Shown here piece after piece: positions 3,477 to 41,595 of a DNA stretch of 64,000 nucleotides (position 1 is its first letter; each line of letters opens with the position of its first letter). The stretch covers positions 32,001-96,000 of IMG/VR virus record IMGVR_UViG_3300033074_001783; one strand, given 5' to 3'. A program made the translations under genes and the position numbers. The stretch comes from a virus (lineage: Duplodnaviria; Caudoviricetes). The notes under the pieces are model-generated. The model ran no database searches and was not told where the DNA came from. It saw only the letters and a program-made list of their open reading frames with translations.

Positions 3477-4265
3477 CTAGCCATTTACAAAATGGTCGTG
3501 GATCGCTTTCAACCAATCCGCAGATTGTGGATTTAGTTCAGCTTGAAGAAGATAACCAGATAGAACAGAAAGTAAAATACGAATTGCAGGATAAATGTTG
3601 GCAACCAAAACCATTTTATAAAACAAGCTTTCACACTTCGTTCGCGCGTTGTCCTTGTTGCCAAGATAATCTTGATCCCCAAGAAAAGTTTTGCTTGATT
3701 GGAATCCATGATCCCACAAAGTCTTGTAGATTGACAAAGAAACCACGTCAGTTGGAATCCATGAAACAGCTTTGTTGTTTACAGTTTTCAAAACAGAACA
3801 AGCTAAATTTATTGCATGTTCTAGTTGCACTGCTTTAAAATTGATTGCGATTGGTTTGAATAGTTCAAGTTTTTTATCTAGGTTTTGGGCGGCTCCAAGA
3901 GAAAAACTTGCAACAGTTGGAAACGTTAAAGACTCTTGCTGAAAAGCAACTGCTGTTTGTTTTCTGGCAAACTCTTGGTACTCGGTTAGAGCAGCTTTGG
4001 ACAAAGACACGAGATTGAAAGAGTCCAAATAGGATTGATCAAAAGATATTTTTTCTTTTGTTTTTGTTTCAACCGTTTGTTTTATTTCTTGAACCAACTC
4101 CAGTCTCACGCCAAGTCGGTCATAAAGATTGTTTACTTTGTTAGCAATCAATCTAGCATAGGTTGAAGATTGAAGTTCCGTGGGAGGTGCTTCCCCATAA
4201 TTCAAAACGCTGTAGATATCTTCTTGCAAAGTTTTGTGTACAAGTTTTTCAATGAGTTTTTGCAT
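3477..4265 (-). CDS. Hypothetical protein with LxE leader (candidate internal head protein)
   Basis: Likely start ATG 4265, just after the upstream stop; N-terminus MQKLIEKLVHKTLQE-D. Confidence 0.6.
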   Translation of the reverse strand: MQKLIEKLVHKTLQEDIYSVLNYGEAPPTELQSSTYARLIANKVNNLYDRLGVRLELVQEIKQTVETKTKEKISFDQSYLDSFNLVSLSKAALTEYQEFARKQTAVAFQQESLTFPTVASFSLGAAQNLDKKLELFKPIAINFKAVQLEHAINLACSVLKTVNNKAVSWIPTDVVSLSIYKTLWDHGFQSSKTFLGDQDYLGNKDNARTKCESLFYKMVLVANIYPAIRILLSVLSGYLLQAELNPQSADWLKAIHDHFVNG

Positions 4266-4266
4266 T

Positions 4267-4980
4267 TCAGCCACCACCAAATTTTTCTGGATAAAATTGT
4301 TTGAGGACATTTAGCGTTGTCCCATGATCCAACAACACCACTCGTCCGTCTGCCGTTTTACCCCAATGTTTGATCACCATTACATCCAAAGGAGCAAAAC
4401 TTTCGTCTCCCGAATGAATGGCTTTCATGAATTCTTGAAACGCATTCCATTGTTGGAATTTTTTCATTTCTGCGAAGACTTGCTTAAACCTTTGACTCTT
4501 GGCGACCACCTGTTGAAAAGAAAGTTGATTCTGTACAGTTTCTATTACCACACTTTTCAAAACACCAAACATAAACCCAGAAACGTGTGCGAATTGGCTT
4601 TCATCTGTGAATTGACCAACCAACTCTTCTGTGATCCAAGAGCCATCTTCTGCTGTTTCAAATACTTTTGTTACCAAATTGGGATAAAGAGAAGCATGTT
4701 TTTGTTCTGTTTTGTTTTGTGCTATACCGGCCTGCAAATTATTCACTTTGGCCAGTTTCAAAACTTTGGTACTTGACAAAAGAAACACAACCCTTGAAGT
4801 TCCATCTTGTTCGTTTGAAATCATTTTAAGTGACTTCTTGGCATAGTCGTATTTCTCTTGTTGAGTTGGCAATGATTTAAAAATGTTCCATTGAAACGTT
4901 TCGGATCTTATCTTCTCTTTTAAAACTGATTGAAATTCTTCTTGGATAATGGTTTCAATCAAAAACTCAATCATTGACAT
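4267..4980 (-). CDS. Protein kinase-like protein with LxE leader
   Basis: Motifs in kinase order: GTSRVVF (Gly loop), VLK (beta3 Lys), QNKTE (alphaC Glu), DVMVIKHWG (catalytic loop), VLLDHG (DFG equivalent). Confidence 0.7.
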   Translation of the reverse strand: MSMIEFLIETIIQEEFQSVLKEKIRSETFQWNIFKSLPTQQEKYDYAKKSLKMISNEQDGTSRVVFLLSSTKVLKLAKVNNLQAGIAQNKTEQKHASLYPNLVTKVFETAEDGSWITEELVGQFTDESQFAHVSGFMFGVLKSVVIETVQNQLSFQQVVAKSQRFKQVFAEMKKFQQWNAFQEFMKAIHSGDESFAPLDVMVIKHWGKTADGRVVLLDHGTTLNVLKQFYPEKFGGG

Positions 4981-4997
4981 GTGGTTAAATAGTTCTT

Positions 4998-5675
4998 TCA
5001 GTCGTCGTAACTGAATCTATTGCCTTTACCAGATTCATCAGGTACAAAATGAACCGGCTTTTCTCCCAAGGCTGGTGAAGCCATATCATCTCCAAGCCGC
5101 TCTCTCATTTGCCTTACATCGCCAGTTGGCATGTGTTTGGAATTTTCTGGGAGTCCTCTTTGCTGTTCAAAGTCAATTTCAACACCCGTCTCTTTAGTGC
5201 CATCGTCTTTTGTTGGATTGTAAACTTTGGCTGGATCAAACTCTCCAACGCGGGCAAGTTTACCAATTAGTTTGTAAGCGCTTTCGTACTCCTCTAGCCC
5301 AAAAATATTGTTCATGTTCAAATAAGACACGACTTCAAACACCGCGTCCCCATAGGTAAAGTAATCTCCTTCATTCAGATTCAAACCTTTATCCAATAAA
5401 TCACGAGCTTGGACCAATATTTCTACTTTTGCAGTTGCCTCTCTTCCAAAAATGTTTTGTTTTGTTTCCCAATTTGGCTGTCCTGCCATAACGCTCAAAG
5501 CCACAGGGTTTTCAAACATTTTGTTAACAGCTTCGCCGTACACAGGATCAACCTTGGTGTGTTTGACAGAAATGGCATAATAAAAAATCCTTTGACCTAT
5601 CACGTCTTTTACCAACTCCTTCACCGTGTCGTTGATAAACTGTATTTCCTTTGTGCCTACGAATAATCTTCCCAT
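4998..5675 (-). CDS. Neck / head-closure protein (T4 gp14-like)
   Basis: IGQRIFYY...DPVYGE...F...GD motifs; located between gp13-like and gp15-like genes. Confidence 0.65.
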   Translation of the reverse strand: MGRLFVGTKEIQFINDTVKELVKDVIGQRIFYYAISVKHTKVDPVYGEAVNKMFENPVALSVMAGQPNWETKQNIFGREATAKVEILVQARDLLDKGLNLNEGDYFTYGDAVFEVVSYLNMNNIFGLEEYESAYKLIGKLARVGEFDPAKVYNPTKDDGTKETGVEIDFEQQRGLPENSKHMPTGDVRQMRERLGDDMASPALGEKPVHFVPDESGKGNRFSYDD

Positions 5676-6382
5676 TACAACACCTGTAGGATGGCTTGTG
5701 TCATAGTTTCAACATTTCCATCATTTATTTCATTAGAGGCGCACCATATTACTCTTCTTAGTTTAATTGTCCCAACTGAGATGATCTCTTTCTCTGATTC
5801 AGCGTAGTGCCTTAGTTCTGGTATTTCAGCAATGCCAGCAGGATTCAAAATGAATTTACCTTGGTTGTCTCCTGTTGCAGCAACAAGTAGACAGGCAAAT
5901 TTGCCTTGGTCTACATCCAAAAAACCGCCAGAGTTAAGTGCTTTGGCAAGGTTGACAAGCTTTTCTTTGTCTCCCCACAAAGTCCAAGAGGCATGGGGTC
6001 TTCCTTTGGGGGTAAAAGTGCCAGATTGGGATTGTTCTACATGTTCAAGCGAGAACATACTTTGTCCAGTTATTGTTGACATAACATTTTCATCAACACC
6101 AAACAAAAATCTATACGCGTAAGCATTTGGTGATTTTAAGATGTCTTGGTATTCCCCGCGATTAGCCAAAGCAGCCAAGGATGGGGCATTCATGCCCAAA
6201 GCATCCATATCCCCTATGTGATGTTGTTTTACAACATTGTAAAGGTTTTTTTCAGGTGCGGTATCAACTTCTGGTTTCTTTGGATCTGGTTTTCCTCTTT
6301 CTTGACCAAACAGCACTTGCCCATATGGTCCTTCTTGAAGAACCCCCATAACCATGTTTTCAATCAGTAAATTCAACTTCAT
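5675..6382 (-). CDS. R-S-E clade ADP-ribosyltransferase-like protein with LxE leader
   Basis: AYR (Arg), ASWT (Ser motif) and ESEKEII (ExE) occur in canonical order; leader MKLNLLIENMVMGVLQE-G. Confidence 0.55.
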   Translation of the reverse strand: MKLNLLIENMVMGVLQEGPYGQVLFGQERGKPDPKKPEVDTAPEKNLYNVVKQHHIGDMDALGMNAPSLAALANRGEYQDILKSPNAYAYRFLFGVDENVMSTITGQSMFSLEHVEQSQSGTFTPKGRPHASWTLWGDKEKLVNLAKALNSGGFLDVDQGKFACLLVAATGDNQGKFILNPAGIAEIPELRHYAESEKEIISVGTIKLRRVIWCASNEINDGNVETMTQAILQVL

Positions 6383-11069: not shown

Positions 11070-13013
11070 CTATATGATGCCCATGTCAAGGATGGTGATT
11101 GTTGCGTAGAAGTCCGCACGAACCATCTTCTTGCCGTAGCGAGTCATCACACCCTTGCGAGGTGTAAAGTCCTCTTGGGCATAGATGACAGGGGTGAGGA
11201 TCAGAGGCACGTAAGGTGCGTAGATGTAACCTGTCTCAAGGAAGGTGTTACCCTTCAAACCGATGAGGATTTTGTTGGTTGGGAAGTAAGGATCCTTGTA
11301 AACCACATAGCGGTTGTTAAGAGTTCCTGTTGCTTCTGCACCGACTGTCATTCCTTCTTTTGTCTGACCATCAGCGTCAATCTTGTAATTGGCTCTGTAG
11401 GCTGTTGTGTGTTCAAGAATTGTACACACGTCAGGAGATGTGATCAGGAAGTTACCTGCTCCGCGCAATGTCTTCTTGTGGATGACGTTTGCAGCGTCGC
11501 TGATGGTCTCCAAAAGTGTCTGATACCACTGTTGAATGTCACCTGTGAATGCAGGGCCGGGTGAGAGTGTTCCCTGACGAGTTCCCTCTGTACCTGTCCA
11601 CTTGTTCACGAAACGACCGGGAGCTCTTGACCAGAAGTAGTTCGCAGCAGCCGCTTGGGTAAGCAAGTCGCTAAGAATCTCGCGGTCAATGTCCAAAGTA
11701 ACCATTTCGCTAAGGATGTTTGTCAGTTCTGCCTCAATGTCAATTGAGTAGAAGGCTGTCAAATCCTGTGCCATTTCAGGCGACCAGCGTGCTCTCAACT
11801 TGCGTGAAGTTGCTGTTACGGCCACTGATTCAATCTTGATGTCCACTTCAGGAATCTTGGGACTTGAGTCCAAAGCGAAGTCAGTTTCAAATGAAGGAAT
11901 CATCAGTGTGCTTCCGTCGTTGTTGACTGACAACGCATCTGAAATCACAGTTGAAGCTGTGAGAGCATGAGTTGTCGCATCACCAAGTGTAGGAGCGTTT
12001 CCTGTGTTGCTCAAGGCAACCAAGAACTGAACGTGTGATCCACCAAGAGCATCGGGTGTAAACAAACCTGTGATTGGGTTAAACGAACCACGCTTTGTCT
12101 TGGTACGGAGGTTCATCACCCCTGTGCCACCTTGATAGTTTGTACCCCAAGTTGTTGCACCACCGGGAGTTCCACCAAGACCAGTAATGGCGATTGCGTG
12201 GAGTGTCTCAAGGTCTGCACCAGCGATTTTGCTTGTGAGCTCTGAAGCTGACATGTGCACGAAGCAGAAGTCCAACACGTTGTTCGCAAGATCGTTTTCA
12301 ATTTGTGAATCAAAATCAGCGAAGCGTGCGTTATAGCCAACGAAATCTGCTGTGCTTTGCACTGTGGCGGTTGTTCCGGTTGTCCACACTGAACCTGATG
12401 ACCAGAAACCAACTGAGTCGGTTGGGGCAATCAAGTTAAGGGCTTGCTTGTGTACCTTTGTGAAGGTTGAACCACCAAGACCGTAGTGCCCACCTGTTGC
12501 CAATGAGCTTGAACGAATGTTCGCGCCTGTTGGAAGGTTGTACACTGACTGGCCACGAGTATATGTCTCATTGGCAGAACTTGTTGAAAGTGAAAGACCA
12601 GCGTCTCCACCAACGTTTGAACCATAAGTGTAGTCCAGATAGAAGAGCAGACCCGCAGGCAAGCTCATAGGCTGTACTGAAACCACTTCGTTCGCAATAA
12701 GGCCCGCGAAGACCTTACGCACGATTGGGAATGCGACGTTTGTGAAACCGGCAATTTGACCAGAAGAAGCCAGACCGGCTCCACCTGTTGAAATGCCGTT
12801 TGCCTCTTGAAGAACTTCACGAGCGCTTGGCCCGCGAAGAAGTTCTACCGCTTGGTTTTCAAGCAGTTTTGCCATCTTGTCTCGGTTGATTCCTGAAAGT
12901 CCTTGCAAAAGACCTGTTTCGGCCCACTTAGCCGTCATGCGGGCTGTGTCATGACCGAGCCCGCGTCGGCTCACGCCTTCCGCAAGTTGGTTTAGTGTGA
13001 ATTGTCTCGCCAT
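11070..13013 (-). CDS. Major capsid protein (T4 gp23-like)
   Basis: LLENQ, PIVRKVF...VSVQPMSLPAGLLFYLD, RKLRARWSPEMAQDL..., YAPYVPL, FTPRKGVMTRYG; AGGGAG RBS. Confidence 0.96.
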   Translation of the reverse strand: MARQFTLNQLAEGVSRRGLGHDTARMTAKWAETGLLQGLSGINRDKMAKLLENQAVELLRGPSAREVLQEANGISTGGAGLASSGQIAGFTNVAFPIVRKVFAGLIANEVVSVQPMSLPAGLLFYLDYTYGSNVGGDAGLSLSTSSANETYTRGQSVYNLPTGANIRSSSLATGGHYGLGGSTFTKVHKQALNLIAPTDSVGFWSSGSVWTTGTTATVQSTADFVGYNARFADFDSQIENDLANNVLDFCFVHMSASELTSKIAGADLETLHAIAITGLGGTPGGATTWGTNYQGGTGVMNLRTKTKRGSFNPITGLFTPDALGGSHVQFLVALSNTGNAPTLGDATTHALTASTVISDALSVNNDGSTLMIPSFETDFALDSSPKIPEVDIKIESVAVTATSRKLRARWSPEMAQDLTAFYSIDIEAELTNILSEMVTLDIDREILSDLLTQAAAANYFWSRAPGRFVNKWTGTEGTRQGTLSPGPAFTGDIQQWYQTLLETISDAANVIHKKTLRGAGNFLITSPDVCTILEHTTAYRANYKIDADGQTKEGMTVGAEATGTLNNRYVVYKDPYFPTNKILIGLKGNTFLETGYIYAPYVPLILTPVIYAQEDFTPRKGVMTRYGKKMVRADFYATITILDMGII

Positions 13014-13049: not shown

Positions 13050-15134
13050 CTAGACTTTGCTAGCGCTAATTCCTGCCAAACGCATCCAACGTTCTCTTGT
13101 TGGAGCGTATTCTTTATTTTCTGTTACGTTTGTGCTCTCATTCAAAGGAGCGCTTCCTGATTTCACTGTTGTAGAAGATGAACCAGAGGTTGTGACCTTC
13201 TTTGGTGAACGGTGCTCGTCAAGAACTTTCTTTACACGAGAATAAACTTCTTTCGCTTCCGCGAATGTTGAAGCCTCATCCATGTAACCAGTGATTTTCT
13301 TTTTCTGGTTTACAGACAAAGACTCAAGAGCAAGTAGTTTGTTCAAGTACAATGACTTGGCTGCAAGCAGTTTCATCTCTTGCAATTCTCTTTTTGTGTT
13401 GCGAAGTTGAACAGATTCCTTCACAACTGGTTTGCGTGATTCTGCAACAGGAGGTGAAATCTCTTCTTCCTCTTCATCATCGGCCAAAGGAGAACCATCG
13501 TCGTTGGTGATTTCATATTCCTCGTCACCATCTGGTTCACTGTGAGCTCCACCAAAATCATCGCCCTCTTCGTCAGAAGGTAAAGATGAAGCCATCGCGG
13601 GTTCAACAGGGTTGCTAACGCTTACGCCGCCGTTGCTGTCAACCTTGATGGTAACAGTAACACCACCATCACTACCTGCACCAAGCTCTTCTGCTTGCAT
13701 ACCGCACTCTTTGAGAGCTTTTGCGGCTTCTTTCAATGCCTTCAGTTTTGCAGCAAACTTTTTCTTTGCTTCCATTACAGCAACCGCGTTGGTGTTTACG
13801 GGTTTGCCGGGTGTCACTTTGTCCATGCCATCTGTCACTTTGTCGCCAAGGATTTCAGCGGCTTCGCCCATTGCTGGCTCTGACTCTTCGCTGTCCCCAA
13901 ACATTTCGCGAAGTTCTGCTTCAAGTTGCATGGCTTCTATGTCTTCTTCAAGATACCCAGAAGCGCCACCAACTTTAAGTGAATCTTCTTTGCCGGGATC
14001 TTTAATGTTTGATTCAGATGCTTTCATCGCGTGTTTGCCAGCGGCATTCTCGGTGTCAAGCTCTGCATCACCTTTTGGTTTCTCGGTACTATCACCGAAA
14101 CCAGCGCTACCTTTTGTTGGAGGTGCATTTTCAAAAAGACCTCTTGCAAATTTTCTCAAGTTTTCGCTACTCATTTTGTTCGTGTCCTTGTTCTTCGGAT
14201 ACGGATAACTATTGGTGTTTTCCGTAGATTCCTGAAGTTGTCTGTATAAACCTTCAAGACGATTTTCTTGAAGGCGTCCAAGTCGTTGAGGCACAAGTTT
14301 ATTTTCAACAAGTTTTTCCAATTTCCCCAACAAACCAAAGAGGTGTTGTTCCATTGCAAATTTTTGCATTTTTGTTGGTTTGGAGTTCAACAAAATATGA
14401 CTCTGTGTTCGTTTGACGGATTCCTTGAAATCTTCGTATGTAATTGCCTCTGTTTGTGTGTCTTCTTCCCCAAAAGGAGGCATGGAAGCATCTGTGTCTT
14501 CCCCTGTGGCCACAACGGGTGCAGGGGTTTCAGATGGGAATCCTCCAATTGGAGTTGTTGGTTCAGTTGGTTCTCCAACCCCCACGCCACCCGTCAAGAC
14601 AGGTTCTTGCCCTGTTGCACTCATTTGTGTCCAAAGGTCATCAAGAGAAACTACAATTTGTCCCGAAGCGTCTGGCAATGGAACGCTGCCAAGGCTTGCT
14701 GATGGAACACTGATTGGAGCTCCGGGGCCTTCAATGGAGGGGGCGCCAATGTTGGCAGGCATACCAGCCTCGGGCGCAACTGGACCGGGAGCAGGAGGCA
14801 CCGCTGGTGGTGGAGCGGGAGGCATTGCTTCTGGTGTGGGCACCGCGGAAGGGGTAGGAGCAGGCGCAGGAGGAGGAACAGCGGGTGGAGAACCCGGAGG
14901 TGCAGCAGCAGGAGGAGGAGCCGAGGCATCTCCTGTCACGTCCGCAAAAGGATCTTCTTCCTCCTGCAAATCATTCATCCCTTCTGTGAGATTGCTAAGG
15001 CTTTGGTTCAATTCTTTTTCAATCAAAGGTGTTATGGCTTCAATGATTGCATTTTTCGCTTGATGAAACGCTGCTTCCTTGTAGCGACCAACTTCTACAA
15101 GTGCTTCATCGTAAAGAGGACTGGAGTTATTCAT
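13050..15134 (-). CDS. Prohead core scaffolding protein (T4 gp22-like)
   Basis: Directly upstream of MCP; acidic, Pro-rich and coiled-coil; many LxE/VxE sites; C-terminal RWMRLAGI. Confidence 0.75.
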   Translation of the reverse strand: MNNSSPLYDEALVEVGRYKEAAFHQAKNAIIEAITPLIEKELNQSLSNLTEGMNDLQEEEDPFADVTGDASAPPPAAAPPGSPPAVPPPAPAPTPSAVPTPEAMPPAPPPAVPPAPGPVAPEAGMPANIGAPSIEGPGAPISVPSASLGSVPLPDASGQIVVSLDDLWTQMSATGQEPVLTGGVGVGEPTEPTTPIGGFPSETPAPVVATGEDTDASMPPFGEEDTQTEAITYEDFKESVKRTQSHILLNSKPTKMQKFAMEQHLFGLLGKLEKLVENKLVPQRLGRLQENRLEGLYRQLQESTENTNSYPYPKNKDTNKMSSENLRKFARGLFENAPPTKGSAGFGDSTEKPKGDAELDTENAAGKHAMKASESNIKDPGKEDSLKVGGASGYLEEDIEAMQLEAELREMFGDSEESEPAMGEAAEILGDKVTDGMDKVTPGKPVNTNAVAVMEAKKKFAAKLKALKEAAKALKECGMQAEELGAGSDGGVTVTIKVDSNGGVSVSNPVEPAMASSLPSDEEGDDFGGAHSEPDGDEEYEITNDDGSPLADDEEEEEISPPVAESRKPVVKESVQLRNTKRELQEMKLLAAKSLYLNKLLALESLSVNQKKKITGYMDEASTFAEAKEVYSRVKKVLDEHRSPKKVTTSGSSSTTVKSGSAPLNESTNVTENKEYAPTRERWMRLAGISASKV

Positions 15135-15672: not shown

Positions 15673-16008
15673 TCAACCGGGAAACACGGGCATGACACGA
15701 GGTTGAGTGTTGAAAGCCAAGGCTGCCCAACGATTGCCAATGGCGGGCTTCATTTGCTGTTGTTGAATGGGCATTTGCATTTGCTGCATCATGGACATTT
15801 GTGGGTCTGGTTCAGAATTCATCAACGTTTCTGCCAGAACGTTTTCCATCAGTTGATTGCCACCAGCCAACGATTGAATCCTATTTTGTGCCATAGGATT
15901 TATCATCATTTGTTGCTGTGGCATTTGTGAGTTTAAAGCACCTTCAGTGATTAACTCTTTCAAACATTCTTTAATGACACTTTTCAATTCAGAGCGAGTG
16001 ATTTTCAT
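15673..16008 (-). CDS. Small prohead core-like protein with LxE leader
   Basis: MKITRSELKSVIKECLKELITE-G followed by Q/M-rich low complexity; overlaps the protease stop. Confidence 0.6.
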   Translation of the reverse strand: MKITRSELKSVIKECLKELITEGALNSQMPQQQMMINPMAQNRIQSLAGGNQLMENVLAETLMNSEPDPQMSMMQQMQMPIQQQQMKPAIGNRWAALAFNTQPRVMPVFPG

Positions 16009-16625
16009 TTTAGTTTTGCACCACTTCCAAGTATTTCATTCAAAACACGATCTACTCTATCTGATTTTTTGAAGATTTGTTTCAAAATTGTTGGATCAAT
16101 TTGTTTTGCTTCTGACAAGCGCATGAATGCTCCGTGTGTTGAAGGTTCAGATACAAAATCCCAACAAATTATCTGCAAGTCATCTTGGACAACATCTGTT
16201 CCATTTTTCTTTTGGACAGAACCAAGAGCTCTTGATGAAATACCCGGAACACCACCTGTTTTCAAAATAGTTTGGATGATGCCACCCGATGTTGGAGCAG
16301 GCATCACCAACACTTTTCCATAAATGTCTGCCCCCTTGGCCCAAATGTCCAAAATACGGTGAGAAGCATTTTTTACGTTAACAATTGGAGTATCGCTGTG
16401 GTCAACCTCTCCAAAAGCTCTGTTTTCTCTGATGAGTTTTTTGTAGTTTTCTATTTCACGCATCAAAATTTCATAAGGATACACACGACCATTTTGGTTT
16501 TCTGCATCTGCTCTCTGAAGAATGCCTTTCACAATCATTGCACCATCTTCACGAGTTTCCATCGTGTCATGGTCATATTCAAATGCCCTGTACTCTTTCA
16601 ACAGATATACTGGTTTTTCGTTCAT
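16005..16625 (-). CDS. Prohead core protease (T4 gp21-like)
   Basis: NQNGRVYP, GEVDH, GISSRALGS, DFVSEPSTHGA. Confidence 0.93.
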   Translation of the reverse strand: MNEKPVYLLKEYRAFEYDHDTMETREDGAMIVKGILQRADAENQNGRVYPYEILMREIENYKKLIRENRAFGEVDHSDTPIVNVKNASHRILDIWAKGADIYGKVLVMPAPTSGGIIQTILKTGGVPGISSRALGSVQKKNGTDVVQDDLQIICWDFVSEPSTHGAFMRLSEAKQIDPTILKQIFKKSDRVDRVLNEILGSGAKLK

Positions 16626-17440: not shown

Positions 17441-19417
17441 TTAAATAGTGCCTTGGTGCATTGCATCTTTCAACAAGTCCAAAAGCACCAACTCATCATC
17501 TGGTTCTTCATTTTCATGTAAGATTTCAATGTCCAACATCATTTTGTTGTTCTTTTGTGATTTTTCAAATCTCTGCAACTTTGAAATTAAATTACGACCA
17601 AGACTCTCTGGTATTCCAGACTTCTTAACTCTGCCATCGCGATAAGATTCACGCTTCAAAAATCCATCTTCTTCCAAGTTCATATCCAACATTTTTCTAA
17701 AATCAACGAGGTTGAATGTTGAACCATCACGTTTTTTATTTGTGTTTCGTGAAGGAGACATGTTGGGATTGATTGGAACCTTGGAACCAATTGATGAATT
17801 TGCAGATTTAATCTGTTCTGATTCCTCAGAAGGCAAAGGAGACGGCCTTGGAGCAATCTGCGGATTGTTTGTGGCGGGTGGCTGTTGATTGCTGCTGCTG
17901 TTTGGTGTTTTGTTTTTTGTGTTTGGTATTTGATAATTGGACGCATCAAACACGTCCACCAAAGAACTGGACGTATCTTCTCCATTTTCATTCTTTGGGG
18001 GCTCCAATGCCTCAAGTGTTTTCTTTCTTAAAGCATCTTTCTCGCGACCAAGACGTATCTTGTTGATTGTGTCCATTCTGAATCCAAGAATTTCTTTTTG
18101 AATCCACTCTTCATCAACCAACTCAGAATCTTTGGCTTTGGAAGCGTTTTCAAAACGAAGCGTCCAGATGTTAAGCTTTTGTTGCAACGCAATGGTGCTT
18201 GGATTGGAAAGCTTCAATTCAAAATCTTGAAGATCTTCTCCATCAAAGCCTTTTGCATACAAATGCAAAACTGCAAGTTGATTTAACTCTGCAATGATGA
18301 TCTTCTGAAGGTTAGTGATGGTTCTTGAAAAACGAATATCTTCTTGAGATAAAGTTGCTTTGGAAGACAAACCATCTTCATAACCAAGATACGCTCTCGG
18401 AACTTTTAGTGCCGCCGTGAGTTTCTTTTGAATATATTCAACATCTTCTATCGCACTTACGTGTTGACCACCAGCAAGCGAATCAATTTTGGTCGCGCTG
18501 TTTGGTCTTGTTGGAAGGAAGTAATCCTCAAGAACATCAATTGGGTTGTGTCTTTCATCGGATCTTCCTGTTAAACGATCTATTGAAGTGTTTGTTCTAA
18601 TCGCTTGCTTGGCCTGTTCCATGTAGTTTGGAACATCGTTTGGGTGAATACCAGAAACGTCAATATAAAAAACCCTTCTTTCAGGAGATCTTACAAGGCG
18701 ATAAACCAACATGGCGTCTTCCAACATGACCAGTTGACGCCAGATTTTCCTTGACGATTCAAGAAAAGATGTACCATACGGAATGAAAATGTCGTTGCTT
18801 ACGACTCTGAAATGCAGCACTTGCCAATTTTCAAGATATTTGCCCGCACCACCTGTTGTGAGTTTGAACCTGACAGCATAAGGATCTTCTGGATCATATC
18901 CCTCTTGTCTTTCAATGTCGGTTATCTTGATCGTCTCAACAAGTGAAACGCCCACATCGGGCATTACCTCTACGTGCAAAAACGTGTCTCCATACTTAAC
19001 CAAGTTACGAATCCATCTCCGCAACTCAAAGTCAACATTGCAAACATCATAAAACAACTCTTCAAGAGCACGTTGAATGTCTGTGTTGTCTGAAAACACA
19101 TGAAAACAACGACCGTTTTCATCTCCCGAACATGATTCATCTGCAAACAGATCTAGGGCAGTTGATATTGCCCCTTCATATTCCATCTCTGCGTATTCTC
19201 TGTATCTTACTTCTCGGTCAATTGCAGCATATGCACCAAGCATATTGAAAGGCGTGCCACCCTTACCTCCATAAAAACTTTGACCTGTTTGATGAATGCT
19301 TTGAGCATTCGTTAACTCTTGATTCAGGTTTTGGTTTTTAATTTTTCTTCTTAAAGCAGGACCAGAACGAAAAATTCTGTTTAATCGCTGATAAAAATTC
19401 TCATTTGCTGTGTTCAT
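17441..19417 (-). CDS. Portal protein (T4 gp20-like)
   Basis: LEDAMLVYRLVRSPERRVFYIDV, EDYFLP, KKLTAALKVPRAYL, EDIRFSR. Confidence 0.95.
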   Translation of the reverse strand: MNTANENFYQRLNRIFRSGPALRRKIKNQNLNQELTNAQSIHQTGQSFYGGKGGTPFNMLGAYAAIDREVRYREYAEMEYEGAISTALDLFADESCSGDENGRCFHVFSDNTDIQRALEELFYDVCNVDFELRRWIRNLVKYGDTFLHVEVMPDVGVSLVETIKITDIERQEGYDPEDPYAVRFKLTTGGAGKYLENWQVLHFRVVSNDIFIPYGTSFLESSRKIWRQLVMLEDAMLVYRLVRSPERRVFYIDVSGIHPNDVPNYMEQAKQAIRTNTSIDRLTGRSDERHNPIDVLEDYFLPTRPNSATKIDSLAGGQHVSAIEDVEYIQKKLTAALKVPRAYLGYEDGLSSKATLSQEDIRFSRTITNLQKIIIAELNQLAVLHLYAKGFDGEDLQDFELKLSNPSTIALQQKLNIWTLRFENASKAKDSELVDEEWIQKEILGFRMDTINKIRLGREKDALRKKTLEALEPPKNENGEDTSSSLVDVFDASNYQIPNTKNKTPNSSSNQQPPATNNPQIAPRPSPLPSEESEQIKSANSSIGSKVPINPNMSPSRNTNKKRDGSTFNLVDFRKMLDMNLEEDGFLKRESYRDGRVKKSGIPESLGRNLISKLQRFEKSQKNNKMMLDIEILHENEEPDDELVLLDLLKDAMHQGTI

Positions 19418-25342: not shown

Positions 25343-25804
25343 ATGACTACACAGTGGCCAGAGCCAGGACCCAATCTTGTTGGGGAATATCAAATATCAG
25401 GTTTGCCTTATGCGACTTCTTCTGTTGTAACTTCAACAACAGTTCCGTTGCAAATAGCATTTCCTTTTGTTACAAGGTTTTTAACAGTTACCAACACTGG
25501 AACAAACTATCTCGGTGTAGGCTGGACTGCAAATGGTATAAAAGGTGGAGACAGATTTACTTTAGCGCCAAGCGGTTCTTACACAGGAGATTGGCGCGTT
25601 AAAGATTTGTATCTGTTGGGAATTGGCGGAAGTTGCAATTTTCAAGTGCAAGCGGGACTCACAATGGTGAGGAGAAAAATGTTCCCCACTTTAACAGGTT
25701 CCGCTGCGGCAGGAGTTTTGTCGGCCAGTGCCAACTCCAGTGATTTTGGATATGGTAGCCCCAATCCTTTGACCGGACTGCCATCTGTTTGTGGTTTGGG
25801 TTGA
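25343..25804 (+). CDS. Hypothetical beta-rich protein, possibly virion-associated
   Basis: 153 aa, rich in Thr/Ser/Gly; CTAATTA 7 nt upstream. Confidence 0.55.
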   Translation: MTTQWPEPGPNLVGEYQISGLPYATSSVVTSTTVPLQIAFPFVTRFLTVTNTGTNYLGVGWTANGIKGGDRFTLAPSGSYTGDWRVKDLYLLGIGGSCNFQVQAGLTMVRRKMFPTLTGSAAAGVLSASANSSDFGYGSPNPLTGLPSVCGLG

Positions 25805-26248
25805 TTACCTGTTGTAAGTGTTGGCAATTGCGCCAACGATCTCTTGCACGCGTCCGCGTGTGACAAGTCCCATGCCAAGATTTTTGCAATGCTCTTTCAC
25901 GGCTTTGCTGTGAAACTGTCCAATGTTTGCATGAATGATTGCAGAAATGCTTTCTGCAAGAGAAATCACCATGTCAAGATATTCATCAAGACTTGCCCTT
26001 GGATTGTTCGTCATTTCCTCAAGCCCGTTGAAAGCTCTTGGAATCATGGGGTTGATGTGCATGACATTTTCTCCAACTGTCGGCTCTGTTGGTGATTTCA
26101 GTTCTCTGGCAAGTGTCTCTGTCGCCTCTTTGAGAATTGGGTGTAGAATTGCCACCTTTCTGGCAAGTGGTTCCACTTCTTGTTTTGACATTTTGGCAAG
26201 TTGAAAAGTGATAGCGGCAAATGTAGGAGGCAGATTCTCGGCGCCCAT
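25805..26248 (-). CDS. Hypothetical protein
   Basis: Likely start ATG 26248 (MGAENLP); converges on the plus-strand island. Confidence 0.55.
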   Translation of the reverse strand: MGAENLPPTFAAITFQLAKMSKQEVEPLARKVAILHPILKEATETLARELKSPTEPTVGENVMHINPMIPRAFNGLEEMTNNPRASLDEYLDMVISLAESISAIIHANIGQFHSKAVKEHCKNLGMGLVTRGRVQEIVGAIANTYNR

Positions 26249-30155: not shown

Positions 30156-30156
30156 A

Positions 30157-30618
30157 CTAATCAATTTCCAATCTTAAATTGAGTTTATAGTATGCCTTTT
30201 TTATATGAGCATGAATCGTTGTTTGGGTATATTCCAACTCTTCATGAATTGATTCATTGTTAACGGATAACGAAACGGTCTTTTTGGACTCCTCGTTAAC
30301 ACGTTTTGCACGTTCCGCTTTGTACTCTTCTGAGATTTTTTTGATTTCGTCTTTTATGAAACCCAGAGCTTCTTCTCTGTGAGATTTCATCAGAGGATGC
30401 ATGGGATGTTTTTGATTCACCGTGCAAATTGTTACAAATGTGGCGGAAACATGTTTGTCATCCAAGAGCTTAAAACTCAAATAATGATGACGAGCCAAAC
30501 TTGATTGTTTGCCGAATGTGCGCTGAATTACAGTCGCAAGCAAATCAAATGTAGCTTTATCTGCAACTGGTTTTTGTGGAATGTGTATTTCTGGCACGGA
30601 ATTTACCTTCGTGCTCAT
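30157..30618 (-). CDS. Hypothetical protein
   Basis: ORF directly upstream of terminase; likely start ATG 30618. Confidence 0.55.
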   Translation of the reverse strand: MSTKVNSVPEIHIPQKPVADKATFDLLATVIQRTFGKQSSLARHHYLSFKLLDDKHVSATFVTICTVNQKHPMHPLMKSHREEALGFIKDEIKKISEEYKAERAKRVNEESKKTVSLSVNNESIHEELEYTQTTIHAHIKKAYYKLNLRLEID

Positions 30619-34200: not shown

Positions 34201-34548
34201 ACTTGTTACTTGGCTTTTTTTAAGAAGAATGATTCTTGGATCATTCATTGCTTGAATGATCGGAGAGATGAAATCTTCTCTTGAATCATTCGCAAGATTG
34301 CCGTCATGATTACCAAGGAGAACATACAATGGAGCAATGTTTGAAAGTTTCTTAAAAGACCAAGAAACTTTTGTGATTGCTTCTGGTGTGATGTTTTGTG
34401 TTTTTGTGTGCCAAGTATCACCTGTGTTGATGATGATATCTGGTTTAATGTTTTTCAACTGCTCACACAGTTGTTCGTGAGCGTCAACATATTCTGCATG
34501 GCGCGTGAGACCGCGCCAATGTATGTCGCTGATGTGTGCTATTTTCAT
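31246..34548 (-). CDS. Fused Mre11/SbcD nuclease and Rad50/SbcC ATPase (T4 gp47+gp46-like)
   Basis: Phosphoesterase motifs HISDIH, GD, GNHD, GDIH; Walker A GPNKTGKS; coiled coil; signature SGMEK; Walker B IVDEGFGALD; ISH. Confidence 0.92.
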   Translation of the reverse strand: MKIAHISDIHWRGLTRHAEYVDAHEQLCEQLKNIKPDIIINTGDTWHTKTQNITPEAITKVSWSFKKLSNIAPLYVLLGNHDGNLANDSREDFISPIIQAMNDPRIILLKKSQVTSLSEWMTEEQYDYDYETKHPSVLLGNKVHLCVFSCFDKDGWQNVRRVPKEENKIRIALYHGSVAGCATDSDWRMTHGEEQLDFFREYDFAFLGDIHKQQFLSTRPDKDGVAKPWIGYPGSLIQQNYGEDETKGFYVWDIRAKDDWDVEFCPLQNKTPFISIPWMGSVRATLATVESLRGNSSFVPGTRVRVLANTLISQVEKRQLYQEIRENRQCEELSFKEDVTRNNLQSIQTGNVTICKTSLRNDVNSLVSLYKEYVASHLAKLEFTEAQLKEGEELIAKYVQKFKEQNNEESARDVIWAVKELEFSNLFRYGENNRVNFNKLSGIVGVFGPNKTGKSSVVSALMYGLFNTTEREIGRAVGHYINRSKRSAKCKVRFSANGTNYVVDRALALKEVKKGQEDVMATTTTLTFNRVDENGKLVPLGSENDITRNDTDKVIRKIIGTPADFQLTAYSSQGDISRFIDQGATQRKAILNRFLDLDIFGILNKYADDDYKAINARTSKYSTVEWDQAITTTEVLLENKKVDLVELEDTIREFRNEVDKLRVWLISNAQQVNTDELKAKLVKLEQELQTLTNVDLKKAHKLHEDAVMLGAKLALQLEESKTAFEKINIKEIEKLKNKLNNHKENLNKVNLSLQTESHVLKEQDKAVKKLETVPCGDMFPHCRFIKDGHEDKTKIQQQLVLVGDLTSKRDQENLQIVELTKMGIDAQLQTHATLAASITNLESKLQQCKTQIKLGLSEISATKEKIATKTSARDELAIAVANAPDTSELVAKNRELAQAKKLLAVAESSKNDLLMEIGQLGAKITQLTTERKEYQEVLSKLTILGSVQEAFSKNGIPAMVLKTQLPMLNNELSNILNNVVDFKLVLETEVSSNTLDVYIEDGHSKRIIELGSGMEKMIASLALRVALNNLSSLPRPDMLIVDEGFGALDEDSIQKCLQLLVMLKNHFKLILVISHIPQVKEVADKMIEVINTGLESKVEV

Positions 34549-37096: not shown

Positions 37097-37783
37097 TCAT
37101 TGTTTCAAGGAACTGTAAAATTGGAATGCCATTCTTATCATCACTGAATCAAACATGCGATAAATTTCAGTATTTGTTTTTTGTAGTGTTTTCATGGTTT
37201 CTTCGTTTTTTTGAACAAGGGAAGAGAAGTTCACTGGTTGTTTGATGGCAAATGCATAGTTCAAATTTTCATCGTTTCCAAGGTTTGATTCATCGGAAAA
37301 AGAACCTTCAGATGGCATCTTTTTGATGTAGAATTCGTTTGCCCGATTAGTGAGATAATAAGCCCAAACTCTTCGTGCAAACTGAGACACATGTTTGCGA
37401 TCAGAGGATAAAAATTCTGGTGATATGGAACTCATTGCAATATCGTACATTGGAGGTCCATATCCTTTCAGGGCCGCGGCATAGCCAACATTCCAAGCAC
37501 CAAACTCAGCCAAGTTTTCGTTTTTGATTTCCATGTAACCAACAATCACTTGTGGAGCAGCTTGCCTTAGAGATTCTTTTTCTTTTGCTTTTGGGTTGTT
37601 TGTAACAAATTTCAACAGTGTTTCTGGTTTATAGAAAATGAAATCTCGGTTTGTGCCATCATCATCTACAAAAAGAGCAATTCCTTGTGATGCCAATGAA
37701 TCAACAGAAACAGCAGCTTCATCCAGCAACTCTTCCGACAAAACCGATTCTGTCAATGATTTTAAAAGCAAGGATGATTTCAT
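37097..37783 (-). CDS. GNAT-like paralog 7 of tandem array, with LxE leader
   Basis: EELLDEAA leader; W.V..AAALKGYGPPMYDIAMS; LSSDR..VS..ARRVW. Confidence 0.65.
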   Translation of the reverse strand: MKSSLLLKSLTESVLSEELLDEAAVSVDSLASQGIALFVDDDGTNRDFIFYKPETLLKFVTNNPKAKEKESLRQAAPQVIVGYMEIKNENLAEFGAWNVGYAAALKGYGPPMYDIAMSSISPEFLSSDRKHVSQFARRVWAYYLTNRANEFYIKKMPSEGSFSDESNLGNDENLNYAFAIKQPVNFSSLVQKNEETMKTLQKTNTEIYRMFDSVMIRMAFQFYSSLKQ

Positions 37784-38430
37784 GAAAAATAACGTCCTTC
37801 AAAATATTTCATTGCCAGTTCAACCAATTCTTCTTCTGCTAGTTTTGGTTCAGACAACTTCCTCATTGTTTGTTTGTTGTTTACAACAAGTTTACCAAAA
37901 TCTATTTTGTTTTTGATTGCGAACATGTAGTTCAAAGCTTTGTCATTTGGTTGCACGTCGTGCCAGCAAGCACCTTTTGGTGAAACTTGTTTGATCATGT
38001 AATCGTTTGCTCTTACGGTTAGCATGTAGTTCCAAACTTTTCTAGCTTGTTTACTTACGTTTTCTCTGTCTGCCGTTAGCAATTGTGGGCTTATGATACT
38101 CATTGCAATGTCGTACATCAAAGGACCATAGCCTTGCCTTGCTGCAATGGAGGAAACCACCCAACCACCACAAAGTTTTTCGTAAGAAGAAGTTATTGCC
38201 ATATAACCAACGACAACATATTCCGGTTCTATTGATTCTTGTTCATTCATCAAAGAAATAAATTCATTTGGCTCATACAAAACTATGAATTTGGTAGCTC
38301 CTCCGTCTTTTATCAACAAAGCATAACCTTCGTTGAGAGCATCACCAACTGATCTGGCTGCTTCATCCAGTATCTCTTCTTTGATTGTTTCTTCGGTTAA
38401 GAATTCAACAATTTGCTGTACACTCATCAT
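37780..38430 (-). CDS. GNAT-like paralog 6
   Basis: EEILDEAA; AARQGYGPLMYDIAMS; LTADRENVSKQARKVW. Confidence 0.65.
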   Translation of the reverse strand: MMSVQQIVEFLTEETIKEEILDEAARSVGDALNEGYALLIKDGGATKFIVLYEPNEFISLMNEQESIEPEYVVVGYMAITSSYEKLCGGWVVSSIAARQGYGPLMYDIAMSIISPQLLTADRENVSKQARKVWNYMLTVRANDYMIKQVSPKGACWHDVQPNDKALNYMFAIKNKIDFGKLVVNNKQTMRKLSEPKLAEEELVELAMKYFEGRYFS

Positions 38431-39080
38431 CCACCAATTTTCAATCCAAAGAATATGAAACCTGCATCTTGAATAAGCTCTGCAATGTTTTCTTCGTTCA
38501 ATCCATCGTCATTCACCATGTTTTGTATACATCTTTGGTGGTTCGCAATCAAAGGTTTGTAGTTGACCGGATCTTTGATTGCGAACGAGTATCTCATTGC
38601 AGCGTCACCGTTTTCATTTCCATGTTTGCAGTTTTGCCCGACGGGTTGAATGTTGTAATCATTTGCTCTTACAGTCAGCATGTAAGCCCAAACTCTTCGT
38701 GCAGACTCAGAGGTGTCTCTTCTGTCGGCCATTAAACTTTCCGGGGATATACGACTCATTGCCATGTCATACAACACAGGACCATAGCCACGTTCTGCAC
38801 CTGCCATTTTCGTAACCCAAGCATTGCAGTCGTCGTCTTTGGCCATGCTGAAATAGCCAACAATCGCGGCTTCAGCAACAGCCTCATACCCTTCGCTATA
38901 TTTCTCTCTCAACACGTCTGGTCTGTACAGGATGAATTTGCAGATTCCTCTACCGTAATCTTCCACTAGGAGTGCGATGTCCTCAAAATCCAAATCTGCA
39001 ATTTGTTTTGCAGCTTCGTCCAACAACTCTTCTGAAAGAACGTTCTCAGCAAGAGATCGTATTATCTTGTTTTTTTTCAT
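38427..39080 (-). CDS. GNAT-like paralog 5
   Basis: EELLDEAA; AERGYGPVLYDMAMS; LMADRRDTSESARRVW. Confidence 0.65.
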   Translation of the reverse strand: MKKNKIIRSLAENVLSEELLDEAAKQIADLDFEDIALLVEDYGRGICKFILYRPDVLREKYSEGYEAVAEAAIVGYFSMAKDDDCNAWVTKMAGAERGYGPVLYDMAMSRISPESLMADRRDTSESARRVWAYMLTVRANDYNIQPVGQNCKHGNENGDAAMRYSFAIKDPVNYKPLIANHQRCIQNMVNDDGLNEENIAELIQDAGFIFFGLKIGG

Positions 39081-39730
39081 TTTTCTCTTGTCCTGTACTT
39101 CTCGTTGAAGAATTCTGTTTCACTTGAGGTAATAATTTGCTGTAAGTCTTCAATCGGATACGAATATGTCTTCATTAAGTATTCAATTGTTTTGTTGTGA
39201 TTTTCAACAAGAGATTTGTAGTCAATCGGATTTTTGATTGCAAAGGCATGATTCAAAGCAGGTTCATTTTGATGGAGTGGAGCAGGAGATGGTTTCACCT
39301 CATACTCGTTCGCTCTTAAAGTTAGGTTGTGATTCCAGATTTTCTTTGCAGCCTTGGAAACAGATGACAAATCAGAACGCAAAAAATCAGGTTTGATGTA
39401 TGACATTAAAATATCATACATCAAAGGACCGTAACCTTGAACTGCCGCAGAACCAGTCACAATCCATGTGTGTTTGTAATTGTTGCTTTTTTTGGCTGCA
39501 ATCGTACCAATGGTCATCAAGAGTTTGTTGCTTCTTGAAGCAAACCCGTCTATAATCATGTTTTCAAGAATGTTGGGATCATACAAGGCAAATGTTGTCT
39601 CGTTGTTTTGTGAAATATACAAAGCAAGATGACTGGCATCTCCGATGGATTTGGCAACTTCGTCCAACAGTTCTTCCGACATTGCCTCTGAAATGATTTT
39701 GTCAACTATTTGGTTTAAATTTGATTTCAA
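39077..39730 (-). CDS. GNAT-like paralog 4
   Basis: EELLDEVA; AAVQGYGPLMYDILMS; LRSDLSSVSKAAKKIW; probable TTG start near 39730 (uncertain). Confidence 0.62.
   Translation of the reverse strand: MKSNLNQIVDKIISEAMSEELLDEVAKSIGDASHLALYISQNNETTFALYDPNILENMIIDGFASRSNKLLMTIGTIAAKKSNNYKHTWIVTGSAAVQGYGPLMYDILMSYIKPDFLRSDLSSVSKAAKKIWNHNLTLRANEYEVKPSPAPLHQNEPALNHAFAIKNPIDYKSLVENHNKTIEYLMKTYSYPIEDLQQIITSSETEFFNEKYRTREK
39217..39267. repeat. 51-bp exact direct repeat shared with 39839-39889
   Basis: tgtagtcaatcggatttttgattgcaaaggcatgattcaaagcaggttcat occurs in paralogs 4 and 3 (encodes EPALNHAFAIKNPIDY). Confidence 0.9.
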
Positions 39731-40343
39731 AATATTTATTGCCCCCTCTCTCAATTGCGTGCAAAACTGTTGGTGTTTTCACATTGTATATTCTGTCTAA
39801 CATCGCTACAGTTTTTACATGGTTTGTTAACAGCTTGCTGTAGTCAATCGGATTTTTGATTGCAAAGGCATGATTCAAAGCAGGTTCATCCCTGTTGTCA
39901 GAAATTTGTTTAATGATAAAATCGTTTGGTCTTACGGTCAACATGTAGTTCCAAACTTTTCTAGCAGAACTTGAAACACTGCTTCTATCTGAAGTAAGAT
40001 AACCCGGCGAAACAGCCGACATGGTGATGTCGTAAAGTAAAGGTCCAAATCCTTTTTCCGCTGCTGAACCACCTATTACCCAAGCGTCCAGAGTGTTTTT
40101 AAACTCCGCATACATTGTCGCAACAATTATGTTGCTCAATCCTTTATCTGAGTAGTCATTGTTTTCAACGAGGTCTTCCAACTCTTTGGGGCTGTACAGA
40201 TCAATATAAATTTCCGTGTTGTTTTTCTTGACACAAAGTGCCAAACCTTCTTGAATAGCGGAACCAATGTCTACGGCTGCTTCATCAAGAAATTCTTCAT
40301 CTAGTGTTTGTTCCGTAAGTGTACGAATTATGTTATTTGTCAT
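39702..40343 (-). CDS. GNAT-like paralog 3
   Basis: EEFLDEAA; AAEKGFGPLLYDITMS; LTSDRSSVSSSARKVW. Confidence 0.65.
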   Translation of the reverse strand: MTNNIIRTLTEQTLDEEFLDEAAVDIGSAIQEGLALCVKKNNTEIYIDLYSPKELEDLVENNDYSDKGLSNIIVATMYAEFKNTLDAWVIGGSAAEKGFGPLLYDITMSAVSPGYLTSDRSSVSSSARKVWNYMLTVRPNDFIIKQISDNRDEPALNHAFAIKNPIDYSKLLTNHVKTVAMLDRIYNVKTPTVLHAIERGGNKYFEIKFKPNS

Positions 40344-40957
40344 GTTTCACCTGACATTACGGTAAAAAAATGATCTCCCGAATTAAGCAGCGTTCTTGTG
40401 GCATTTGTGTTTTTCATTTTTTTCATCAATGATTCATGTCTTGCCACAAGAGAAGAAAAATCAATCGGATTTTTGATTGAAAATACACGTTTTAATTCTT
40501 CTTCTTGGTAACCAGCTAAACATTTGTTACCTTGTAGTTTTTTGGTGTTGAAATCGTGTGCCCTAACAGTCAACATGTAAGCCCAAACTCTTCTAGCTTG
40601 TAGTGATACAGAGTTCCTATCGGCTCCAAGATAATCAGGTGCGATAGCACTCATCGCAATATCATACATCAAAGGACCGTAACCTTTTAATGCTGCGGAA
40701 TATTGAACAAACCAAACATCACAGTTTTGATTATAAGTGATATTTATAAATCCTACAATTGAATCTGTTAAAAGTTGGGTGCCAGATTTGAAAGACCAAG
40801 CAAATACCTCTGGTCTATAAAGAACAAACTGTTTCCCCAGACCATCTTTATGATACAGCAAAGCCAATTTTTCTTGGTCTGATTGCTGAATGGTTTTTGC
40901 TGCTTCGTCAAGAATTTCTTCCGACAACACATTTTCTATGAGTTGATTTAATTTCAT
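40340..40957 (-). CDS. GNAT-like paralog 2
   Basis: EEILDEAA; AALKGYGPLMYDIAMS; LGADRNSVSLQARRVW. Confidence 0.65.
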   Translation of the reverse strand: MKLNQLIENVLSEEILDEAAKTIQQSDQEKLALLYHKDGLGKQFVLYRPEVFAWSFKSGTQLLTDSIVGFINITYNQNCDVWFVQYSAALKGYGPLMYDIAMSAIAPDYLGADRNSVSLQARRVWAYMLTVRAHDFNTKKLQGNKCLAGYQEEELKRVFSIKNPIDFSSLVARHESLMKKMKNTNATRTLLNSGDHFFTVMSGET

Positions 40958-41595
40958 GACCACCTTCTGTTGAACTCTTCTTCCGCAGCACCTTCCAAGG
41001 TCATCGCGTATTGGTCCTCAATGTACATATCCTCCGCTTTTTTAAGCCAATCAAGATGAGTGTAAAGAAGAGGTTTGTAATCAATCGGATTTTTGATTGA
41101 GAAGGCATAGTTGAGAAAATCTGGTTTTCCCAAACCGTTTTTGTCGTAAAAACTACAACCGGCGGGTTTGATGTTGTAATCATTAGAACGCACGGTAAAC
41201 ATGTAGTTCCAAATTTTCCTAGCAGATGCAGATACACGTCTTCTGTCCGAGATAAGAAATTCTGGAGCGATGTAAGACATGGCCAAATCATACATCAAAG
41301 GGCCATATCCTTTTTGTGCAACCGTTGTTGTGATTTCCCATGCACCACACTCGCTTACATCCGTTTCAAAAAATATACTTCCAACAACAAGTTCTGTGCT
41401 GCTTACGCTCTCACGTTGTTGAATTCTTGGAATTATCAATTTTGGTTCGTAAAGGATCATTCTGATGGATTCATTCTGATCATCAACATACAAAGCCAAA
41501 CCGTTGTTTATTGCGTCTTGTGCCGAAGACGCAGCTTCGTCCAACAACTCTTCTTGTAGAGTTCGTTCAACAAGCAGATCTAAAAGTGGTTGCAT
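40954..41595 (-). CDS. GNAT-like paralog 1 (first in operon)
   Basis: EELLDEAA; VAQKGYGPLMYDLAMS; LISDRRRVSASARKIW; GTATTTA 5 nt upstream. Confidence 0.65.
   Translation of the reverse strand: MQPLLDLLVERTLQEELLDEAASSAQDAINNGLALYVDDQNESIRMILYEPKLIIPRIQQRESVSSTELVVGSIFFETDVSECGAWEITTTVAQKGYGPLMYDLAMSYIAPEFLISDRRRVSASARKIWNYMFTVRSNDYNIKPAGCSFYDKNGLGKPDFLNYAFSIKNPIDYKPLLYTHLDWLKKAEDMYIEDQYAMTLEGAAEEEFNRRWS

Follow-up and report, generated by a model that had tools for sequence, protein, structure and literature searches.

A tandem array of seven leader-bearing, predicted GNAT-like proteins as candidate injected capsid cargo of an uncultured T4-like virus

The window analysed here, a DNA stretch of 64 kb, corresponds to bases 32001-96000 of a 118,963-bp IMG/VR virus record (IMGVR_UViG_3300033074_001783, Caudoviricetes), and all coordinates refer to this window unless another genome is named. 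Between positions 37097 and 41595 it contains a tandem array of seven paralogous genes, whose products are discussed here as candidate capsid cargo. As described in an earlier note on this DNA, the genes are arranged head to tail, and all seven are co-directional open reading frames (ORFs) on the minus strand that encode 201-228 amino acids (aa), or 207-228 aa when read as longest ORFs. Paralog 1 (40954..41595, 213 aa, family profile E 1.6e-91), paralog 2 (40340..40963, 207 aa from a GTG), paralog 3 (39702..40343, 213 aa), paralog 4 (39077..39754, 225 aa from TTG 39754), paralog 6 (37780..38430, 216 aa), and paralog 7 (37097..37783, 228 aa) were defined by ORF, alignment and family profile, and paralog 5 (38427..39080) comprises 217 aa. 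In a full-length alignment paralogs 2-7 are 34-39% identical to paralog 1, and all seven copies match the family profile with E 1e-88 to 5e-98, therefore the array is far beyond chance. No further family copy was found in the 119-kb record by profile scan. The ATGA start/stop overlaps that had been claimed for most junctions are present at five of the six. The true start of paralog 2 is most likely the ATG at 40957 (205 aa), which gives an ATGA overlap with the upstream stop. For paralog 4 it is most likely the TTG at 39730, leading to a predicted product of 217 aa beginning with MKSNLNQIV, since leader-like residues, which can be aligned to the leaders of the remaining paralogs, are found upstream of the ATG of the gene callers (39682). 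Paralogs 3 (39839-39889) and 4 (39217-39267) have an exact tract of 51 nucleotides in common, encoding ...EPALNHAFAIKNPIDY, and are ~60-70% identical in DNA outside of it, which suggests a recent gene conversion within the array. A tree of 62 family members is star-like, and neither the order nor the age of the duplications can be read from it. A scan for the T4 late promoter TATAAATA gave one match vs. one expected, and scans for sigma-70 promoters and terminators gave counts at or under the shuffle expectation.

The most informative feature of the array, which the earlier note overlooked, is its N-terminal leader. Every copy opens with an amphipathic leader of ~20 residues, which ends with L/I/F-L-D-E↓A/V-A (the arrow marks the predicted cut) and contains two upstream [LI]xE sites. 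In all seven copies these three [L/I]-x-E sites are spaced by 5 residues and lie within the first 20-23 residues, and the mature part of ~190 residues contains 0-5 [LI]xE sites per copy. The leader of paralog 1 (41536-41595, residues 1-20, with [LI]xE at residues 10, 15, and 20) ends with LLDE↓AA, as do those of paralogs 5 and 7 (residues 1-22 each); those of paralogs 2 and 6 (residues 1-23 in the latter) end with ILDE↓AA, that of paralog 3 (residues 1-21) with FLDE↓AA, and that of paralog 4 with LLDE↓VA. The mature part of paralog 1 would have ~22 kDa, and the calculated isoelectric point (pI) of the mature part is 4.8 for paralogs 1 and 5 and 9.2 for paralog 2. Family-wide, the leader motif [LIF]18-x-E20-x-A22 is conserved as strongly as the G-x-G-P loop of the mature domain described below, with [LIF]18 in 87%, E20 in 107, and A22 in 105 of the 113 full-length members. 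In both structure models the leader is the part of lowest confidence, ahead of a domain with a predicted local distance difference test score (pLDDT) of >90. Other relatives start with MKLLREYIRELLKE, MKITVRQLRRVISEE or MKLLFENWRRYLTEAA, and some begin with MKLLREYIRE, which is visibly like the capsid-targeting sequence (CTS) MKTYQEFIAE of T4 (PMC8442874). The T4 prohead protease gp21 cuts after L/I-X-E, and the propeptides of giant-phage head proteins hold redundant sites (PMC9026906); moreover, small N-terminal peptides are trimmed by gp21 from IPI-III and Alt (PMC9958956). Judged from its sequence, the leader end L-D-E↓A-A fits the cutting rule of gp21, and with such sites in the leader the proteins are probably capsid cargo rather than enzymes of the cytoplasm. 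When a leader-only hidden Markov model (HMM), which was built from the family, was applied to 234 N-termini of T4 as a positive control, IpII ranked second and gp22 third, but IpIII, Alt and IpI followed only at ranks 27 to 43; the resemblance between the leader and the T4 CTS is therefore only suggestive. The hypothetical 54-aa protein gp61.1 of T4 (AF158101, gene 61.1, 18966-19130), which starts with MKTFKEFIKE, a sequence near the CTS, ranked fourth of the 234.

The genome also encodes the enzyme that is predicted to process the leaders, a T4 gp21-type prohead protease (Peptidase_S77, PF03420, 85.4 bits, E 2.1e-25) at 16005..16625. It belongs to a head module in T4 order on the minus strand, which consists of a gp20-type portal (17441..19417; PF07230, E 4e-66), the protease, small core-like proteins, a scaffold-like protein of 694 aa (13050..15134), and a gp23-type major capsid protein (11070..13013; PF07068, E 2e-64). 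The N-terminus of the capsid protein aligns to T4 gp23 (E 1e-7), and its candidate maturation site VLQE↓ANGISTGG (E70↓A71) places VLQE↓A within a few residues of FLTE↓AEIGG of T4, the site where gp23 is cut, after residue 65. The scaffold-like protein, whose gene lies between those of the protease and the capsid protein, has no Pfam match and contains 12 [LIVFM]xE[AGS] sites; from its position and the number of sites it is a candidate for the prohead core and an analog of gp22. A complex prediction of leader residues 1-40 with this protein gave a score of 0.00, was run without controls and counts neither way. Compared by capsid protein, the nearest cultured phages are remote, with 43% for Flavobacterium phage immuto and 33% for Microcystis phage Mel-JY01; judged by the former, the host is probably of a Bacteroidota type. 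CheckV assigns the 118,963-bp record a completeness of 32%, and we infer a full genome of ~370 kb. It is conceivable that the seven paralogs are themselves prohead core or scaffold components, which would be degraded and expelled at maturation and would be neither cargo nor effectors. T4 gp22, gp67, and gp68 are substrates of gp21 (PMC9958956), and the leader of the array resembles that of a small protein encoded beside the protease gene. However, it is in the leader that the cleavage motifs cluster, and what follows is a compact domain of 21-23 kDa that is modeled with confidence. A scaffold would also not be expected to occur as seven divergent paralogs with hypervariable surfaces, and the position of gp22 is already taken by the 694-aa protein rich in cleavage sites. 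A scaffold role for the array was therefore rejected, and we consider it very improbable.

The leader HMM was also used to score extreme N-termini vs. internal windows. In the genome under study five of 138 non-family N-termini scored >10 bits vs. none of 475 internal windows (p 5e-4). One of them belongs to a 111-aa protein (15673..16008, minus strand), whose gene adjoins the protease gene; its leader is MKITRSELKSVIKECLKELITE↓G with 13.4 bits, and the protein may belong to the prohead core or to the cargo. Three more minus-strand ORFs within 3477..6382 (3477-4310, 4267-4980, and 5675-6382) reach 10.4-13.1 bits at the N-terminus, belong to no Pfam family and are candidates for additional cargo. 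The same was found for a 273-kb IMG/VR relative (G003), which is 82% complete and has an S77 protease: there the leader pattern is present in 21 of 306 N-termini vs. 13 of 2,296 internal windows (p 3.5e-12). In this relative a 15-kb block (248446-263662, locus L029) contains ten family members interleaved with at least seven non-family ORFs, and family and non-family proteins alike start with MK.LRQYIR..L(L/T)E. Furthermore, a small protein beside its protease gene (126392-126838) also carries the leader and is the counterpart of the 111-aa protein. As far as can be judged from these sequences, the leader is a module common to otherwise unrelated proteins in two genomes. Its occurrence can also be compared with that of the protease: an S77 protease is present in 13 of the 18 family-bearing records of at least 100 kb, and among the records without it, the three that are complete or nearly so have family members that lack the leader. 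The N-terminus of the ORF 62820-63314 also matches the family leader, and so do those of two unrelated ORFs in genome G000 (25124-25882 and 27319-28026, L077). None of the three belongs to a Pfam family, and such leader-matching unrelated ORFs are candidates for further capsid cargo or core proteins.

The mature part was proposed by the earlier note to have the fold of GNAT (acyl-CoA N-acyltransferase) proteins, a call that stood in the predicted structures but not in sequence comparisons, as we will focus on below. Two AlphaFold models (pLDDT 81 and 92) have only chains of the GNAT superfamily among their top 50 structural matches, and Foldseek, whose use had been suggested, gave probabilities of 0.92-0.99. 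The better model (pLDDT 91.9, predicted template modeling score 0.87) reached a probability of 0.99, and its residues 34-167 run beta1-alpha1-alpha2-beta2-beta3-beta4-alpha3-beta5-alpha4-beta6-beta7, which is the GNAT element order. A93-x-x-G96-x-G98-P99 is placed by the predicted model exactly between beta4 and alpha3 and is in register with motif A (Q/R-x-x-G-x-G/A), of which both glycines are kept but the first position is Ala, and the loop before GYG does not have to be read as shorter than canonical, as the earlier note had it. Likewise, S122-x-x-A125-x-x-x-W129 on alpha4 recalls GNAT motif B. Two indirect links to recognized GNATs were seen. The ESM Atlas neighbors of paralog 6 are viral clusters, some of which have PF00583 in 15-48% of their members. 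When fused and long relatives were analyzed with Pfam, only one was informative, the 1,367-aa protein P0041 (locus L038, 8009-12121 of a 118-kb viral contig), which contains three family domains and two canonical Pfam GNAT domains. P0041 additionally has a C-terminal HNH motif and appears as a polyvalent-type multi-acyltransferase. We conclude from the models that the fold is GNAT-like and that the family lies outside the current sequence definitions, and enzymatic activity remains putative.

The conservation of the seven copies, expressed as mean pairwise identity, is a mosaic. It amounts to 0.53 in the leader, with an invariant EE.LDE.A, 0.25 in the N region (residues 23-85), 0.58 in the core (residues 86-140), 0.24 in the loop (residues 141-160), 0.54 in the beta7 region (residues 161-180), and 0.13 in the C-terminal helices. 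Thus, the proposed division into a conserved and a diversified half holds true, with the beta4-alpha3-beta5-alpha4 core on the one side and the N-terminal, loop and C-terminal parts on the other. The strong variability that had been described for the N-terminal region and the C-terminal helix applies to residues 23-85 and to the C-terminal helices, but not to the extreme N-terminus, which is the conserved leader. The core motif that had been quoted, W..V...A..G(Y/F)GP.(M/L)YD..MS...P..L..D...S..A..(V/I)W followed by NY.FAIKNPID, is present in the alignment. In the A93-x-x-G96-x-G98-P99 loop, G98 is found in 113, G96 in 105, and A93 in 108 of the 113 full-length members. Among 94 diverse members no exchange is seen at G98 or D117, and conservation is at least 90% at G96, P99, Y102, A125, W129, and R136. 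The G-x-G-P loop, D117, R118, Y102, S122, A125, W129, and R136 are 85-100% conserved among members that are otherwise ~30% identical, and because G-x-G-P, D117, R118, Y102, W129, and R136 are near-invariant at such divergence, the alignments favor a retained ligand site.

The family is large and has no name. An exhaustive profile search gave 1,977 cluster representatives (50% identity) at E<=1e-3, of which 738 were found at E<=1e-10, and all were on uncultured viral contigs. A word-index protein search with a 94-row profile gave only seven matches, also without name. The seven copies have no match in Pfam or PHROGs, and no match to the array by blastn or to three subfamily members by tblastn was found in GenBank phages. 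The same applies to the family profile on the whole records of Mel-JY01, immuto, LR756508, LR756511, and P-SSM2. In the literature, we found no description of the family, of GNAT-fold proteins with a leader of the CTS type, or of the leader strings themselves. Two affiliations were tried and rejected. None of the seven copies matches phiKZ_IP (PF12699) at E<=1, and a specific kinship with AcrVA5 is not given, as dozens of other GNATs score at least as well.

Taken as a whole, the seven proteins may be capsid-targeted, protease-trimmed and injected cargo with a GNAT-like core that probably uses acyl-CoA and with hypervariable surfaces facing the targets, a view that we hold with about as much confidence as doubt. 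The amphipathic leader of ~20 residues would act like the T4 CTS and dock the protein into the prohead core, where the gp21-type protease would clip it at the redundant [L/I]-x-E sites, the last of which is L-D-E↓A-A. The trimmed domain of 21-23 kDa would be kept in the head together with the DNA and would be ejected into the host at infection, ahead of any phage gene expression. The mature domain would then be a very divergent GNAT fold, in which the conserved beta4-alpha3-beta5-alpha4 and beta7 elements, with A-x-x-G-x-G-P, D117-R118, and S..A...W, most likely bind acyl-CoA. The acceptor site of GNAT proteins is lined by the N-terminal subdomain, the beta6-beta7 loop and the C-terminal helices, and it is these copy-specific parts that would select the target. 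As variation falls on the acceptor site, the host target probably differs from copy to copy or changes fast; host defense proteins as such targets are pure inference. The earlier note had named a redundant action as structural head proteins as a refutation of its enzymatic reading. In our analysis this is a false opposition, since a head-internal and an effector role would be compatible, as in T4 Alt and Ip1-3.

Several points weigh against injected acyl-CoA-dependent cargo. The [LI]xE motif is short and acidic amphipathic helices are common, the array lies ~21 kb from the head module, and the pI of the mature proteins ranges from 4.8 to 9.2, unlike that of the basic T4 IPII and IPIII. Moreover, tblastn and the five record scans revealed the family in no cultured phage, and it is known from sequence alone. 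The T4 control of the leader HMM was weak, as IpIII ranked 27th, Alt 29th, and IpI 43rd of the 234 N-termini. This weakness would also suit unpackaged cytoplasmic GNAT-like enzymes that are made late in infection and modify, for instance, small molecules or proteins of the phage or host, and in which the N-terminal helix is a part of the fold or an oligomerization element. The array adjoins nuclease and replication genes, and many phage GNATs are cytoplasmic, as AcrVA5 and also Rac of phiKMV (cited in PMC7824862). However, the leader is modular and present on unrelated proteins in two genomes, it has three phased gp21-type sites, it is missing from the members in genomes without S77 protease, and it is modeled at low confidence apart from the domain, all of which makes unpackaged enzymes unlikely. 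The remaining points concern the GNAT assignment. None of the seven copies matches the Pfam GNAT models at E<=1 and none of 94 family members at E<=0.1, hhalign against three canonical phage GNATs gave probabilities of <1%, aligning KGYGP, though not significantly, with RGRGYG of one canonical GNAT, and the family profile gave only chance matches to PDB sequences. In addition, the first position of motif A, Gln or Arg elsewhere, is Ala in the family. The missing sequence-level membership and the Ala would likewise be explained if the proteins are packaged and injected but are pseudo-enzymes, whose variable surfaces bind and block host proteins stoichiometrically, in the way that T4 Ip1-3 act on GmrSD variants, or which simply fill and organize the head interior, in the manner of the inner-body paralogs of phiKZ and SPN3US. 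T4 Ip1-3 are non-enzymatic, mutually non-homologous and target-specific inhibitors (PMC12373910), and giant-phage heads contain paralog families of variable copy number and unknown function (PMC5694885). Yet the G-x-G-P loop, D117, R118, Y102, S122, A125, W129, and R136 are kept in the pattern of a ligand or catalytic site, and the variable parts are on the acceptor side and not on the cofactor side of a GNAT, so that we regard pseudo-enzymes as possible but rather doubtful. There also remains a mixture of cargo pseudo-enzymes, unpackaged enzymes and degraded scaffold components.

The earlier note had placed the array between a baseplate block and nuclease genes. The latter are indeed found downstream, where a TnsA-like endonuclease (PF08722), a RuvC-like resolvase, a primase and a fused SbcCD gene are encoded. 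The assignment of a baseplate block found no support, as there were no PHROG matches upstream, and the sole profile match of this block is Laminin_G_3 in the adjacent 786-aa protein. The fused gene (31246-34548) encodes one polypeptide of 1,100 aa that combines a Mre11/SbcD-like phosphoesterase with a SbcC/Rad50-like ATPase. Proteins of the SbcD/SbcC type are usually encoded by two genes, gp47 and gp46 in T4. The T4-type large terminase (27183-30164, 993 aa), which also counts among the T4-type head genes, carries an intein insertion, whose Hint/Intein_splicing and LAGLIDADG_3 domains lie at residues 254-669. Two ORFs flanking the capsid-gene region, 6432-7376 and 10294-10956, have the common start G(V/G)YKLTNTTNGR(I/F)Y(V/I)GS, which as read from the translations is typical of GIY-YIG homing endonucleases, and an ORF of 574 aa on the plus strand (23036-24760) reads like a GroEL-type chaperonin.

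Proteins that are injected together with the DNA act before phage gene expression and are thus a first line of counter-defense. To our knowledge very few injected phage proteins have been described, chiefly Ip1-3 and Alt of T4 as well as head proteins of phiKZ and SPN3US. The array offers a large enzyme-fold family that is absent from Pfam and PHROGs, a packaging signature that is legible in raw genomes, and a conservation pattern of a fixed putative cofactor site vs. hypervariable target-facing surfaces. More generally, but only tentatively, uncultured T4-like and giant phages could use a portable load-then-clip leader to build arsenals of injected enzymes, with the family of ~2,000 clusters as one of the main payloads and each copy acylating a different host protein, of defense or housekeeping function, within seconds after the DNA has entered. 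If this is true, the leader alone could list the injected proteome of uncultured phages from metagenomes. If the array is confirmed as injected cargo, the T4 internal-protein model would extend to acyl-transfer effectors, injected proteins of uncultured giant phages could be found by a practical rule, and the natural variants could be used for mapping which host proteins are the targets.

The closest parallel is given by the internal proteins (Ips) of T4. Like the proteins of the array, they have a short amphipathic N-terminal leader ending with [L/I]-x-E↓A, and in T4 as in this phage a gp21-type protease, a gp20 portal and a gp23 capsid protein are encoded in one genome. In both cases the leader is common to otherwise unrelated proteins and several diverged copies are present per genome, and also the presumed role, delivery with the DNA against host defenses, is the same. 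However, the T4 CTS has 10 residues and one site, whereas the leader of the array has ~20 residues and three phased sites, with a loose likeness in sequence, and for the mature proteins no homology to a T4 Ip is seen, as there was no PHROG match. Furthermore, the T4 Ips are small non-enzymatic inhibitors, whereas the array encodes 21-23 kDa domains of predicted GNAT fold with a conserved putative cofactor site. In this respect the array would be more like T4 Alt, an effector with an enzyme fold that is loaded into the head, trimmed by the protease, injected, and modifies host proteins before the transcription of phage genes (PMC5512222; PMC9958956), as we propose for the seven paralogs. Alt is an ADP-ribosyltransferase that uses NAD and a single protein of 76 kDa, in contrast to seven small GNAT-like paralogs with putative acyl-CoA use. 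The inner-body proteins of phiKZ and the families A and B of SPN3US are clustered head-internal paralogs of variable copy number (2-20) with shared N-terminal propeptides, in which a protease related to gp21 cuts behind Glu (PMC5694885), and a similar processing is predicted for the leader of the array. The protease of phiKZ and SPN3US is of the S80 type and recognizes S/A-x-E, whereas this phage has a T4-type S77 protease and L/I-x-E sites; the proteins are not related in sequence, and we found no literature report of a GNAT-like fold for the phiKZ and SPN3US head families. Rac of phiKMV-like phages, AcrVA5, and the GNAT domains of virion-delivered polyvalent proteins have a GNAT fold and act on host proteins, which is presumed for the array as well, and a deployment of GNATs from the capsid was predicted for polyvalent proteins and some solo GNATs of mycobacteriophages (PMC5512222). 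These proteins are recognized by the Pfam GNAT models (RimI-like) and have no CTS-type leader, whereas the opposite is true for the family described here. Each component is thus already known separately: internal proteins directed by a CTS, the packaging of enzymes such as Alt, and GNAT effectors of phages.

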